This document shows positions 12,639-46,872 of a stretch of 64,000 nt of DNA, piece by piece. The first letter of the stretch is position 1. Each line of letters begins with the position of its first letter. Location: the IMG/VR virus record IMGVR_UViG_2811995239_000002, positions 1 through 64,000 of that record; one strand, written 5' to 3'. Position numbers and translations under genes: made by a program. The DNA comes from a virus. Its lineage: Duplodnaviria > Caudoviricetes. A model generated the notes under the pieces. That model searched no databases. It had not been told where the DNA came from and worked only from the letters and a program-made list of their open reading frames with translations.

Positions 12639-13306
12639 AATCAACGGTAGAAACAAAAATCTGTGAGTTAGTGAAGTCAGGGCATGAGCTGGCGAAAGAA
12701 CTGCATTGTGCTGAGTCTGCCGCGCTGGTGCGTAATCTGGCTACGCAGCTGGAAGTGCAACTGGTGCGTAGCAATGCTCTGGCCGCAAAGCTGAGCATGA
12801 TTAACGGCCTCATGGGCGCTGCTGAACAGGCCAACAAACTGGCACAAGAAGCAACGGAAAAACTTGTGCAGGAGCGTGACGCGCTGGCTGCGGAGAATGC
12901 GGCGCTGAAGGCGTTTGGCGACAAGCTGAATGAGATGCATAACGGCCTGAATGGTGAAGGAACCGGAATTCAAGGGCGTGCAGAAGTGGCTTGTCAGCAG
13001 GCTGCGCTGGACGCTGCGATGGAAGAATTTGACGCAATCAAAACCCCAGCCACATCCGCTTTCCTGGCTGAAGTGCAATCAAAAGCTCGCGAAGAAGGTG
13101 CTTACTTTGTTGCTAATCGAATGCTTGCTGCATGGGATGCCGGATTTATCGATGACACCGCAAAGAACGCTGCGGACATCGCACGAATGATACTGACCTC
13201 CACAGAGTTTATGGCTGATGCGCCGGAAGGCGATTTCGAACGCTCATTCGCTGATGGCGTGCTGAAAGATATCGCAGCCCAACTTCGCAAAGGAGCCGCC
13301 CAATGA
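12635..13306 (+). CDS. Phage accessory protein (Ead/Ea22-region mosaic)
   Basis: ALAAENAALK, TPATSAFLAEV motifs. Confidence 0.65.
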   Translation: MKSTVETKICELVKSGHELAKELHCAESAALVRNLATQLEVQLVRSNALAAKLSMINGLMGAAEQANKLAQEATEKLVQERDALAAENAALKAFGDKLNEMHNGLNGEGTGIQGRAEVACQQAALDAAMEEFDAIKTPATSAFLAEVQSKAREEGAYFVANRMLAAWDAGFIDDTAKNAADIARMILTSTEFMADAPEGDFERSFADGVLKDIAAQLRKGAAQ

Positions 13307-14139
13307 GCACTGGTATCAAACACCCAGCAATTCGCTACCACGGCGGTAAATTCCGCCTGGCATCGTGGATTACCAGTCATTTCCCTGAGCACCGCTGCTA
13401 TGTTGAACCGTTCGGCGGCGCTGCATCCGTCCTGCTGCGTAAGGAACCCAGCGAGGCCGAGGTATATAACGATCTTGATGGTGATGTAGTGAACCTGTTC
13501 AGTGTCCTGCGCGATCCTACTGCCAGTCGTGCGCTTATCGAAGCATGCGCATTAACTCCTTATTCCCGAACTGAGTTCCAGTGCGCTTACGAGCCAACTG
13601 ACGATCGTGTAGAGCAGGCTCGACGTCTTATCGTTCGCGCCACTATGGGCTTCGGGAGTGCTGGCGCCACGAAAGGTTGCACTGGCTTTCGTCTCGATAC
13701 CAAACGCAACAGTAGCACCGCACAACGTGTATGGGCTCGCCAGCCGGATAATCTCGCCGCGGTCGCCAGTCGGTTCTCTGGCGTCCTCGTTGAGAACCGA
13801 CCGGCTATTCAGTGTATGCAGGACCATGACACGCCGACAACGCTCCACTTTGTTGATCCGCCGTATGTCCATGACACCCGGACAGGTTCAACAAAAACAA
13901 GCGCATACCGCTTCGAAATGACGAACGACGAGCATGTAGAACTACTCGACGCGCTGAAGTGTTTACAGGGGATGGTCATCGTTTGCGGCTATGACAGCAA
14001 ACTTTATAACGATGCGCTGGCGGGCTGGCTGCGCGTCACCCGCACCACGTCGGCAAATGGTCATTCAGGCTCAGTGCAACGTACCGAATGCCTCTGGATT
14101 AACCCGGCAGCACAGCAAAAACAGGAGCGTGCAGCATGA
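13303..14139 (+). CDS. D12-class DNA adenine methyltransferase
   Basis: RYHGGK, EPFGGAAS, DPPY. Confidence 0.92.
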   Translation: MSTGIKHPAIRYHGGKFRLASWITSHFPEHRCYVEPFGGAASVLLRKEPSEAEVYNDLDGDVVNLFSVLRDPTASRALIEACALTPYSRTEFQCAYEPTDDRVEQARRLIVRATMGFGSAGATKGCTGFRLDTKRNSSTAQRVWARQPDNLAAVASRFSGVLVENRPAIQCMQDHDTPTTLHFVDPPYVHDTRTGSTKTSAYRFEMTNDEHVELLDALKCLQGMVIVCGYDSKLYNDALAGWLRVTRTTSANGHSGSVQRTECLWINPAAQQKQERAA

Positions 14140-14390
14140 GCAACATCGACAAACAGGCGCTGCGCCAATTAGCAACGGATGCGCATGAACTGGGCATCAT
14201 CAAGCGTTACACGAAAGGCATTGAGGCCAATAAGAGGTTCGCTGCCACCGCCACTCCTTTAACCGTTCTGGCGCTGCTGGATGAGCTGGAAGCCAAAGAC
14301 AAGCAGATAGCAGATTTAAAGGAAGCGTTCCGCATTGCCTTGTCTGCTGCTGGCATCGACGTCGCAGTTGGCATCGGTGAGGGGGAGTGA
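14136..14390 (+). CDS. Ead/Ea22-like protein
   Basis: MSNIDKQALR, P.TVLALLDELE. Confidence 0.75.
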   Translation: MSNIDKQALRQLATDAHELGIIKRYTKGIEANKRFAATATPLTVLALLDELEAKDKQIADLKEAFRIALSAAGIDVAVGIGEGE

Positions 14391-15454
14391 TGGGTATCAC
14401 GCATGTTGTGAGCTTCTCTGGTGGCAGAACATCCGGGAGACTTGTCAGGGAAATGGAAAATAAACGCCAGTTGGGGTGGGATGTTCGTTACGTGTTCATG
14501 GACACCGGAGCGGAACACCCTGAAACCTATAAATTCATCAGGGAGGTTGTCGCTAACTGGGGGATTGACCTTATTTGCCTTCGCGTCCAGGTAAATCCCG
14601 AACTGGGGAAAGCGAACAGCTACAAGGTCATTTCCATTGATGAAATTGGCCCCGATTTGCAACCGTGGATCGATGTTATGGCGAAATACGGCACTCCATA
14701 TTTCGGCGGCGCGTTCTGTACGCGGACAATGAAAATTGAGGTATGCGAACGATTTTGCAAAGAGAATTTTACCGATTACCGGTCGTGGCTTGGGATGCGT
14801 GTCGACGAACCGGCACGAATCTGGGGTGAAGCTCTTTTCCCTAAATTGCGCCGTATGAATTTCGATAATTACATGATGATTGATTTATATCGCGATTTAT
14901 CGCAGTCGCAAACTAAGGAGCAAATGCAGGAAACTCTGGAAACTCATTTCATGATTTTCGGTGACGTGGCAAATGAGATTATTAATCGTGTTCTTTCTAT
15001 CGCCATATCAAAACAGCGCTTTATGGCAGAAATAATTGATGATGAAAAACAGGATGTTCTGAACTGGTGGAAGCTGCAACCGTTCGATCTCGGTATCCCT
15101 GAGCACCTCGGTAACTGTGTTTTTTGCATCAAGAAAGGCGTCAACAAAGTTGCTCTTGCTATGCGTGATGCTCCTGAAATGCTGGCGCAATTCCGTGAAG
15201 CAATCATGTCACCTGATGTGCGCGTTGTTGAGCGCCGCCAGCAGGAAAACAAAATCATGTACAGGAAAGGGCATTCTCTGGACAGCATTGAAGAAGCATA
15301 TCAATCACTAACTCGCGATGAAATTGCGGCAACCATGCGCGGCGGCGGTGGTGAAGAACCGGGTTCCTGCACGGAAAGCTGCGAGGCTTTTATTGTAGGA
15401 AACAGCGATTCGGCTCAGATGGACTTGTTCGCAAATCAGGAGAAAGCAGCATGA
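14387..15454 (+). CDS. PAPS-reductase/PP-loop family protein with Cys clusters
   Basis: SFSGGRTS PP-loop, DTGAEHPETY, CTRTMK, GNCVFC, SCTESC. Confidence 0.85.
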   Translation: MMGITHVVSFSGGRTSGRLVREMENKRQLGWDVRYVFMDTGAEHPETYKFIREVVANWGIDLICLRVQVNPELGKANSYKVISIDEIGPDLQPWIDVMAKYGTPYFGGAFCTRTMKIEVCERFCKENFTDYRSWLGMRVDEPARIWGEALFPKLRRMNFDNYMMIDLYRDLSQSQTKEQMQETLETHFMIFGDVANEIINRVLSIAISKQRFMAEIIDDEKQDVLNWWKLQPFDLGIPEHLGNCVFCIKKGVNKVALAMRDAPEMLAQFREAIMSPDVRVVERRQQENKIMYRKGHSLDSIEEAYQSLTRDEIAATMRGGGGEEPGSCTESCEAFIVGNSDSAQMDLFANQEKAA

Positions 15455-16095: not shown

Positions 16096-16604
16096 AAACT
16101 ATCCACCTTTCAGAGCGTGAGCTTTCCATGATTTTCAGCATGCTGACGCCGCCTTACACAGTCAGCGATACCCACACGGACGAGTTCAACGAATTGCGTA
16201 ACAAAGTCTTTTACGCTCTGCGTGATGCTCAGAACGATGAACCTGTAAGTAATCGTGATGAGTTGCAGGTAATTGGCTGGCTGCGTAGTGATTACAACAG
16301 CGACGACAAACGCGACCCGAACGCACCTCTGTTTATGTTGGGCAGCAATGACCCGTCTGAAGCTTGGGGTGTGAAATATCTCCCGTTGTCTGGCAACTCT
16401 CCGGTGATTCCAGATGGTTACGTGCTGGTGCCTATCGTCCCGACCGAGGACATGATTATTAACGGCTTCGAATCTGTTCCAGATCCACACTTCAGCGATG
16501 AAAAAGAGTGGGAGGAATACGAAGCATTAAGCGGATGCCGCAAGGCGGCGCGCCGGGCTGAGTTGTGCTGGGCAGCAATGATCTCCGCTGTGCCCAAGGG
16601 GTAG
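16092..16604 (+). CDS. Phage hypothetical protein (GNSPVIPDG...WAAM)
   Basis: ATGA-coupled; shares blocks with 48488-49273. Confidence 0.65.
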
Positions 16605-16614
16605 TAACCGAAAC

Positions 16615-16641
16615 GAAAAAGGGGCCGACATTTGTCGCCCC
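16615..16641 (-). terminator. Intrinsic terminator downstream of the tRNA-like gene
   Basis: GGGGCGACAAATGTCGGCCCC-TTTTT on minus strand. Confidence 0.75.
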
Positions 16642-16643
16642 CC

Positions 16644-16734
16644 AAATAGGGAGGGGATTTGAACCCCTGGACCACATTTCTGCAGTCTGCGCAGTATCAA
16701 TGCGCCGCAATAAACCAAGCTCTGCCACCCTGCC
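16644..16734 (-). tRNA. Atypical type II (Ser-like body) tRNA or pseudo-tRNA with GAT (Ile) anticodon, degenerate acceptor end, no CCA
   Basis: Hand-folded cloverleaf: D arm with GG, GCGCA-TTGATAC-TGCGC, 7-bp variable stem with GAAA loop, AGGGG-TTCAAAT-CCCCT. Confidence 0.75.
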
Positions 16735-16807
16735 ATACTTGGCGTTGATAAGATTTATCTCATATCGTTTAATGATTGCCAATTATCCATTTTTGGTAGG
16801 GTGTAAT

Positions 16808-17065
16808 ATGTCTAACTGGAACATAGCAGCAAAAAGCAAAGAAGAGCAGGACAAAGTTAACGTAGACCTGGCGGCCAGCGGCGTGGCGTACAAAGAGCGC
16901 CTGAACATGCCGGTTATCGCTGAGCAGGTAGCACGAGAGCAGCCAGAGCATCTACGCGAGTATTTTATGGAGCGAGTACGTTACTACCGTGAGCAAAGCC
17001 TGAAGCTACCGAAATCATCCGATCCGCGCTACATCGAAATGGCGGAGCAAAACGCCAAAAAGTAA
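16808..17065 (+). CDS. holE: DNA polymerase III theta subunit homolog (HolE/Hot)
   Basis: [35 protein letters not shown]. Confidence 0.9.
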
Positions 17066-20126: not shown

Positions 20127-20202
20127 TTGCCTGTAGCTCAGAGGAAAGAGCATCTGCCTTCTAAGCAGTTGGTCGCTGGTTCGAATCCAGCCAGGCGAGC
20201 CA
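20127..20202 (+). tRNA. tRNA-Arg (TCT)
   Basis: 76-nt cloverleaf, TAGCTCAG, loop CTTCTAA, GGTTCGAATCC, encoded CCA. Confidence 0.9.
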
Positions 20203-46797: not shown

Positions 46798-46872
46798 TGG
46801 TGTCCCCTGCAGGAATCGAACCTGCAACTAGCCCTTAGGAGGGGCTCGTTATATCCATTTAACTAAGGAGAC
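46798..46872 (-). tRNA. argW: tRNA-Arg (CCT), argW type; integration site
   Basis: 75 nt, anticodon loop CTCCTAA, GGTTCGATTCC, CCA. Confidence 0.95.

Follow-up and report, generated by a model that had tools for sequence, protein, structure and literature searches.

What can a tRNA-like RNA do whose body is that of a serine tRNA and whose anticodon is that of isoleucine? The question is raised by a gene on the minus strand of a 64,000-nucleotide stretch of viral DNA (Duplodnaviria; Caudoviricetes), positions 1 to 64,000 of IMG/VR record IMGVR_UViG_2811995239_000002. This stretch, called the window below, derives from an 89-kb provirus record. The gene (16644-16734) sits amid the plus-strand genes of a lambdoid early-right operon, on the opposite strand. 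We found that it belongs to a family of prophage genes in which the inner stems covary, the anticodon is constant and the acceptor end is non-canonical. We tentatively favour the view that the gene would specify a selected tRNA mimic with an isoleucine anticodon, charged poorly or not at all.

A class II tRNA-like gene with an isoleucine anticodon

The gene and its acceptor end occupy the following positions:

16644..16734, minus strand: class II (long variable arm) tRNA-like gene, from ARAGORN, Rfam, the cloverleaf fold and the segment table
16645..16647, minus strand: positions 70-72 (A, T, T), opposite G1, G2 and C3 (16734-16732), from the sequence and the segment table

ARAGORN called a tRNA-Ile(gat) of 91 nt at 16644-16734 on the minus strand, with G1 at 16734, the anticodon GAT at 16698-16696 and the discriminator T at 16644. 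The score with Rfam RF00005 was 40.9 bits (E 3.2e-5 for the window), above the gathering score of 29. This value lies within the 40.8-59.4 bits obtained for the class II (Leu, Ser, Tyr) tRNAs of one E. coli chromosome and is low beside the two tRNA-Arg genes of the window (64 bits each). A tRNA gene with an Ile (GAU) anticodon, proposed earlier from the letters of the window, was thus confirmed, and the minus strand reads segment by segment exactly as it had been parsed in that original prediction.

ARAGORN, the Rfam alignment and a manual parse agree on acceptor and T stems of 7 and 5 pairs. Upon reading the sequences, registers of 8/4 and 9/3 were rejected, the 8-pair register failing in the window, and so was a G3-U70 (alanine) register. 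A plus-strand structure was also discarded, because the G-U pairs of the variable stem and the T- and D-loop motifs fit the minus strand only. The variable region is 20 nt long, as compared to 5 nt in the host tRNA-Ile. The cloverleaf is the minimum-energy fold, with just the inner four acceptor pairs formed.

In the window, the outer acceptor pairs are G-U, G-U and C/A, every other stem pairs, and CCA is not encoded since GGG directly follows the discriminator. The gene therefore departs from a canonical elongator tRNA, with its mismatch-free acceptor helix of seven pairs and its CCA (judged here as encoded). As internal controls, tRNA-Arg TCT (20127-20202, behind a Q-like gene) and tRNA-Arg CCT (46798-46872) of the window both have mismatch-free acceptor stems of seven pairs and an encoded CCA. 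In phage T4, tRNAs without CCA are matured by RNase BN and the CCA-adding enzyme. The outer pairs, the missing CCA and the well-paired inner arms had all been correctly noticed beforehand. The description of the acceptor end as disabled fared less well: the end is non-canonical, but the word may overstate the case, since G-U wobbles make up two of the three outer pairs.

Three intact variants with covarying stems

The family consists of three intact variants, A, B and C, and of a decayed variant, D; all carry the anticodon GAT. Variant A comprises the window and two contigs (L020, L051) with identical bodies. Variant B, 86-87 nt long, was found on six contigs (L005, L006, L010, L021, L049, L055). 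For this variant, the start given by ARAGORN one base upstream was set aside because it would leave an unpaired base between the T and acceptor stems. Variant C, 92 nt long, occurs in 11 of 5426 complete E. coli genomes and on three contigs (L052, L053, L054). The E. coli copies are 100% identical over 124 nt, are all annotated tRNA-Ile and are flanked by replication gene P and the nin genes, on the strand opposite to both. Contig L047 carries C2, which is variant C with two substitutions, and L042 carries variant D. The RF00005 scores of the relatives are 49.8 bits for B, 46.4 bits for C and 48.3 bits for C2.

To compare the variants, A, B and C were segmented by hand, as a MAFFT alignment had misplaced the anticodon and the variable region of C. 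About 26 of 91 body positions differ between A and B, and the three variants differ at roughly one quarter to one third of the body. All 17 inner pairs (acceptor 4-7, D 10-12, anticodon 27-31, T 49-53) are nevertheless Watson-Crick in A, B and C (51/51 cells). At seven of these pairs, 4:69, 7:66, 12:23, 27:43, 29:41, 49:65 and 50:64, the change is two-sided and compensatory. The variable stems differ in sequence and all pair, with 7, 5 and 7 pairs in A, B and C. No variant, D included, departs from GAU, U33 and A37. This conservation of the anticodon and its loop context implies that something reads the anticodon.

The body is also conserved relative to its surroundings, in comparisons where the flanks include mosaic junctions. 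Between the window and L020 we counted 0 differences in 90 body positions and 69 in 270 flank positions, with the same body result for L051; between L005 and L021, the counts were 0/84 and 35/270. In contigs of four sequencing runs, 16644-16734 is unchanged, and the sequence diverges from the window beyond ~16603 and ~16830. The body is more conserved than the adjoining coding sequence of a holE homologue. Taken together, these comparisons suggest that the folded minus-strand RNA is under selection. Random decay without stem covariation, which had been named as one of the outcomes that would undo the original prediction, was not what we observed: the three intact variants covary and one copy is decayed.

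The distribution of the family was explored by several scans, which recovered members in collections independent of one another. The terminator 16-mer matched 19 viral contigs, of which five carry the gene, and among the metagenome matches six of seven do. L047 and L042 were recovered by anticodon-arm scans. The other matches of these scans were dismissed: L043-L045 are chance matches, L046 has no tRNA at the match and L048 carries an ordinary 75-nt tRNA-Ile. A scan with the promoter block gave 21 matches, five of them known members and 16 due to chance. BLAST with A, B and C found no family member among 50,697 phage records, and a plasmid search limited to variant A gave no match. The joint acceptor and terminator pattern had zero matches in viral contigs. 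In species-representative genomes, the T-loop and terminator pattern gave five matches and no family member; in four of them the neighbour is an unrelated tRNA (Pro, Ser GCU, Leu, Glu) and the phyla are unrelated too, and the fifth is without a tRNA call. Our literature search found no description of a prophage family of tRNA-like genes of serine type with an isoleucine anticodon. The terminator junction common to the variants favours a single origin, as far as the sequences tell.

The end of contig L047 (14109-14188) is a SraC/RyeA-SdsR/RyeB small-RNA locus (Rfam, 103 and 94 bits), which suggests that this end is either host DNA or an integration site.

The body is of the serine type

In A, B and C the variable arm is laid out as one unpaired nucleotide, the stem, and no nucleotide before C48. 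Among the distinct class II tRNAs of E. coli, this layout is found in 4/4 tRNA-Ser, in 0/7 tRNA-Leu and in 0/2 tRNA-Tyr; it was also seen in one phage tRNA-Ser. C11:G24 in the D stem and the 5′ G1 and G2 are kept in all three variants. In BLAST searches of the phage collection, the best relatives of variant C are annotated tRNA-Ser in five of six records. For variant B, 20 of 30 among the matches listed are annotated tRNA-Ser, with no other isotype. The tRNA-Ser(GCU) of Klebsiella phage ST13-OXA48phi12.5 (L056:2494-2581, behind gene Q) has a variable arm identical to that of variant B and one difference in the D arm, and it possesses a perfect acceptor stem, G73 and CCA.

The case of variant A was considered separately. 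Variant A had zero BLAST matches in the phage collection and its D loop is two bases longer. Its whole-length identity to E. coli class II tRNAs is 65% for Ser versus 63% for Leu, a measure that parts Ser from Leu and Tyr clearly for variant C only. A and B are alike in the anticodon arm, the upstream block and the terminator. Variant A was therefore assigned to the serine type because of its arm layout and its kinship with B. Overall, the earlier proposal of a serine-type body is borne out by the variable-arm layout, by the phage tRNA-Ser relatives of B and C and by the arm identity with a phage tRNA-Ser(GCU), more thinly so for the variant of the window. Relatives with a repaired acceptor stem and CCA had also been predicted. 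They did not turn up within the cassette family, and only ordinary phage tRNA-Ser of the late operon answer to the description.

These late-operon tRNA-Ser(GCU) of lambdoid phages share with the family the class II serine architecture, the T loop, C11:G24, the 5′-GG and the U36-A37 context. They have a GCU anticodon, a perfect 7-pair acceptor, G73 and CCA, and they are encoded in sense just behind Q. In contrast, the prophage genes have GAU, outer pairs that are G-U or mismatched, and only A or U from position 70 to 73; they encode no CCA, are followed by a terminator of their own and lie antisense in the early operon. A tRNA-Ser(GCU) of the type carried behind gene Q is the probable ancestor. 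A single change of C35 to A in such a phage tRNA-Ser would yield GAU, and the remaining consistent differences are at the acceptor end.

The likeness to the host tRNA-Ile(GAU) (E. coli, L036) is confined to GAU and, in variant C, to an identical 7-nt anticodon loop. The host tRNA belongs to class I and is 77 nt long; its variable loop measures 5 nt, its acceptor stem is paired throughout, and it carries A73 and CCA. Over the whole length, it shares 53-58% identity with A, B and C.

Serine charging determinants are missing from the acceptor end

A and B have the same outer end, GGC opposite ATT, though pairs 4:69 and 7:66 changed between them. In variant C, GGA is opposite TAT, giving G-U, G/A and A-U. 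Throughout positions 70-73, the three variants have only A or T, and none of them encodes CCA. Only the 3′-strand end is thus damaged, in lineages that keep all other pairs. Three origins would fit this pattern: selection against a functional serine end, absence of constraint there, or a founding fusion of a 3′-truncated tRNA to a terminator.

In bacterial tRNA-Ser, G1-C72 and G2-C71 are described as "absolutely conserved" (PMC9976931). The same source describes the variable arm as the primary element and the anticodon as irrelevant and, for E. coli, G73 and acceptor-stem determinants as important. PMC6827378 lists C72, G2:C71 and A3:U70 for the E. coli tRNA-Ser, also C11:G24. In the window, G1 and G2 are opposite U72 and U71, and the discriminator is U73. 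No member has a serine anticodon (NGA or GCU); all carry GAU. On the isoleucine side, the anticodon feature of tRNA-Ile(GAU), G34 A35 U36 together with A37, is present. Further determinants given for tRNA-Ile are A73, C4:G69, U12 paired with 23 and C29:G41 (PMC9976931). The window has U73, A4:U69, A12:U23 and G29:C41 in their place, and its variable region is not the short loop of class I tRNA-Ile. A73 and U12:A23 occur in variant B only, A and C having U73, and C4:G69 and C29:G41 are absent from A, B and C. On these features, the family would fall outside tRNA-Ser by its acceptor end and anticodon, and outside tRNA-Ile by its shape and discriminator. It may be described as a mobile-element tRNA in which the body and the anticodon are at odds.

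From these data, we propose the following scheme. A prophage gene under selection would be self-contained, with a weak promoter-like stretch, a tRNA-like body and a terminator. The acceptor nucleotides read by SerRS, C71, C72 and G73, and the CCA would have been replaced by A or U, while compensatory evolution would keep the rest of the L-shape, namely the D arm, the elbow, the serine-type variable arm, the anticodon arm and the inner acceptor pairs. In the lysogen, the RNA is predicted to fold like a tRNA, to display the isoleucine anticodon loop and to be a very poor aminoacylation substrate. It would act mainly uncharged, bound by a partner that reads the anticodon loop of tRNA-Ile or the shape of a tRNA. 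Possible partners include a toxin or nuclease that targets tRNAs, the A site of the ribosome together with RelA, and IleRS. Such a scheme would exclude a role as a regular amino-acid donor.

This reading was placed first for two reasons. First, the acceptor-end determinants for both SerRS and IleRS (for the latter A73, C4:G69 and C29:G41) are largely missing. Second, a serine-type precedent, allo-tRNA(UAU), was inactive in translation. As described by Mukai et al. (2017, PMC5389517), allo-tRNA(UAU) genes carry stem-destabilising changes and lie near mobile or toxin-antitoxin genes; of those assayed in E. coli, 6/6 did not support translation, and a role outside translation was put forward. The allo-tRNAs resemble the prophage family in a serine-type long-arm body with a non-serine, isoleucine anticodon, in weakened stems and in their association with mobile elements. 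They differ from it in stems of 8/4 or 9/3, kinship with tRNA-Sec, the anticodon UAU (codon AUA) and their occurrence in Acidobacteria and other soil bacteria, whereas the prophage family is canonical 7/5 class II, has GAU and is found in prophages of Enterobacteriaceae. The family would thus work like the allo-tRNAs, yet it is not a member of that group, because its 7/5 stems do not have the 8/4 or 9/3 geometry. Another tRNA-like gene of a mobile island, the Bacillus cereus pseudo-tRNA "tRNA-Other", is described as non-translational and as affecting phenotype (PMC3399842); according to that description, it is set apart by organism, origin and shape.

A terminator and a promoter-like stretch flank the gene

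Two further minus-strand features were delineated next to the gene:

16616..16643, minus strand: terminator hairpin and T-run directly after the discriminator, from folding
16754..16782, minus strand: promoter-like stretch recognised by eye, with TTGGCA at 16782-16777, a 17-nt spacer, TG at 16762-16761 and GATAAA at 16759-16754

The hairpin (16643-16620) is followed by TTTTT and has a folding energy of -17.2 kcal/mol (z -2.59). Its stem contains in the window a 1x1 G/G mismatch at 16638/16625. In L020, L051 and contigs of four sequencing runs, the minus strand has T at 16638, so that a G-U pair can form again. A consensus scan left the terminator of the window copy uncalled and called an 11-pair terminator in variants B and C; the 16-mer of the terminator core is common to A, B and C. 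The intrinsic terminator that the gene had been thought to own is therefore present as a hairpin with a T-run directly 3′ to it, with the reservation that the stem of the window copy is mismatched and was missed by the scan.

Being antisense to the lytic operon, the gene would need its own promoter. A and B both retain the promoter-like upstream block, D retains part of it, and the region upstream of variant C is unrelated. Starting from the promoter-like stretch, the transcript would have a leader of ~13 nt; we infer that the gene is transcribed. None of the 20 sequencing runs listed as sharing about one third of the sampled words is catalogued as RNA, which speaks neither for nor against expression. 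A predicted fold of the putative primary transcript replaces the acceptor stem by a helix between the leader (window 16734-16750) and the 5′ half of the D-arm region. Such pairing may compete with tRNA folding before 5′ processing.

Genomic context

Upstream in the operon of the window are genes for a DnaC-like loader, a Dam methylase and a PAPS-reductase-like protein, followed by two open reading frames (ORFs) with no known function, the last ending at 16604. Downstream are a homologue of holE (theta), NinB, an antirepressor and a Q-like gene, then tRNA-Arg(TCT). The divergent neighbour is:

16808..17065, plus strand: homologue of DNA polymerase III theta (holE), Pfam PF06440, E 1.6e-36

The tRNA-like gene lies 73 bp from the holE ATG (16808). 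Its position antisense to the pR operon and divergent from the holE homologue, as originally reported, is confirmed by the gene content and by the Pfam match. The holE homologue adjoins or neighbours the tRNA-like gene in A, B and C contexts (L010:10048-10302; L055:5782-6036; L052:1063-1317). The holE-like ORF adjoins variant B and lies ~850 bp from variant C in L052; at the E. coli locus L001, a DinI gene and ORFs with no known function take its place. We regard the holE homologue as a context marker and claim no functional link with the tRNA-like gene. No synthetase, nuclease, toxin or tRNA-modifying gene was found nearby, either by Pfam and PHROGs on the neighbours of A and C or in the ORF lists of the B and C contigs.

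In the window, the Dam-type methylase gene and the gene for the PAPS-reductase-like-domain protein that follows it span 13303-15454.

Alternative explanations

Several observations weigh against an uncharged mimic. A single-copy, weakly promoted gene may miss the stoichiometry that a decoy needs against an abundant tRNA. As two of the three outer pairs are G-U, the helix may stack and the RNA may be chargeable. All decoding features are conserved, and a translating tRNA would fit them equally well. The consensus scan for promoters came up empty in A, B and C, and apart from the nearby holE homologue no protein gene is common to the A, B and C neighbourhoods. The minimum-energy z-scores of the folds are unremarkable (-0.37, -1.32, -1.60). 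The family is rare and has three intact lineages only, so the covariation would rest on few, and part of it could be inherited from different functional tRNA-Ser ancestors. Finally, the L042 copy is decayed: ARAGORN does not call it, Rfam gives no match even at E values up to 1, and it does not fold into a cloverleaf. In this copy (L042:10090-10205, minus strand), the D and anticodon arms are those of variant B and the upstream block is related; the T stem is disrupted, the T loop has changed, and a shorter hairpin stands in the place of the terminator.

It is possible, though doubtful, that the gene is a detuned missense tRNA. SerRS would charge it weakly through the variable arm and the tertiary core, serine would be inserted at AUU and AUC at a tolerated low rate, and the weak acceptor would act as a brake. 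The serine-type arm layout, C11:G24, G1 and G2 have been retained, and the variants conserve the elbow and the anticodon loop with U33 and A37, as such a tRNA would require. The constancy of the GGC-ATT outer end in A and B while inner pairs changed would then reflect stabilising selection on a set level of activity. There is an engineered parallel: in yeast, a tRNA-Ser with a foreign anticodon is reported to be lethal unless dampened, which changes at 1:72, at 3:70 and in the discriminator achieve (Berg et al. 2019, PMC6827378). Those tRNAs combine, as the prophage gene does, a serine body and a non-serine anticodon with acceptor or discriminator changes; they are laboratory constructs with measured mistranslation, as described there, whereas the prophage gene is natural and known here from its sequence. 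On the other hand, C72, C71 and G73, determinants for serine in E. coli, are all lost, and Ile-to-Ser errors hold no evident gain for a prophage. CCACCA tagging requires GG at positions 1-2. An unstable acceptor end would invite this tagging, which is described as followed by degradation, also in E. coli (PMC5824355). The natural allo-tRNAs with serine-type bodies and isoleucine anticodons, 6/6 of which were inactive as reported in PMC5389517, argue in the same direction. In its broad form, this explanation would have prophages of E. coli and related enterobacteria give their lysogens a throttled, serine-charged tRNA that reads AUU and AUC, programmed mistranslation being a trait of lysogenic conversion; we hold this unlikely.

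A relic appears less probable, and we judge it quite unlikely. The gene would then be a mutated, non-functional copy of a phage tRNA-Ser hitch-hiking in the mosaic nin region, its conservation reflecting the recent horizontal spread of few alleles. The rarity of the family is consistent with this (one allele in 11/5426 E. coli genomes, 0/50,697 phage records, no plasmid match for A, 0/5 of the species-representative matches), as are the clearly decayed L042 copy, the lack of a called consensus promoter and the non-significant z-scores of the folds. A relic does not readily account for 17 inner pairs that stay Watson-Crick, with seven two-sided compensations and a constant anticodon, in bodies that have diverged by roughly one quarter to one third. 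Neutral decay would not be expected to limit the damage to positions 70-73 in three lineages either, nor to leave the body more conserved than the adjoining holE coding sequence.

We consider it improbable that the gene is a remoulded tRNA-Ile. Here, the C35A change would have created the main IleRS determinants (G34, A35, U36, with an A37 able to carry t6A) and the acceptor changes would have erased the serine identity. The product would be an isoleucine-charged spare decoder of AUU and AUC, whose foreign body evades toxins directed against the host tRNA-Ile(GAU). Isoleucine is attached in vivo to an initiator tRNA whose anticodon has been changed to GAU. The toxins CdiA-CT EC3006 and Kp342 are reported to cut the acceptor stem specifically of tRNA-Ile(GAU). 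EC3006, an enterobacterial contact-dependent toxin, is described as cleaving tRNA-Ile in target cells (PMC9424206), and nuclease-resistant phage tRNAs are reported to be able to rescue cells from tRNA nucleases (PMC12445682, PMC10264068, PMC11555353). Like the gene studied here, the latter are altered, phage-borne tRNAs, thought to counter tRNA nucleases; in those descriptions they are chargeable isoacceptors of lytic phages with cognate bodies, whereas in the prophage gene the body is non-cognate and the acceptor end damaged, and the gene is antisense to the lytic operon. The variants themselves speak both ways. The 7-nt anticodon loop of C equals that of the host tRNA, and B has A73 and U12:A23, yet A, the variant of the window, and C carry U73, and C4:G69 and C29:G41 are missing in all three. 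Moreover, an acceptor helix ending in mismatches would be equally bad for IleRS, CCA addition and EF-Tu, and a single, weakly promoted gene could hardly replace an abundant tRNA.

A role other than that of a tRNA, either as a DNA-level site for attachment or recombination or as a small RNA made of trailer and terminator, is very improbable: although the BLAST similarity of C to A and B covers only 56-60 nt, from the T arm through the terminator (86-88% identity, the best-conserved block), and the promoter side of C is unrelated, the compensatory changes in four stems imply selection on a folded minus-strand RNA and not on DNA, the variable-stem G-U pairs of variant A form on the minus strand only, the trailer is little beyond the terminator hairpin, and the scar of an attachment site was rejected as no integrase or inserted element adjoins the gene.

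Significance

Whether as an uncharged mimic or otherwise, the gene differs from its phage tRNA-Ser relative exactly at the nucleotides that decide charging. tRNA genes with a mismatched body and anticodon are a natural route to ambiguity of the genetic code, and natural cases in well-studied bacteria are few. One practical consequence concerns annotation: the E. coli copies labelled plain tRNA-Ile should not be counted as isoleucine isoacceptors. The family is rare, yet it is directly testable in E. coli. If the gene mistranslates, it would be a natural missense tRNA in the best-understood bacterium. If the RNA is uncharged, as we tentatively favour, it would be the second independently evolved mobile tRNA-like RNA with a serine body, an isoleucine anticodon and a weakened acceptor, the first being allo-tRNA(UAU). 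Two such cases would point to a function that recurs, tied to isoleucine decoding or to toxins aimed at tRNA-Ile.

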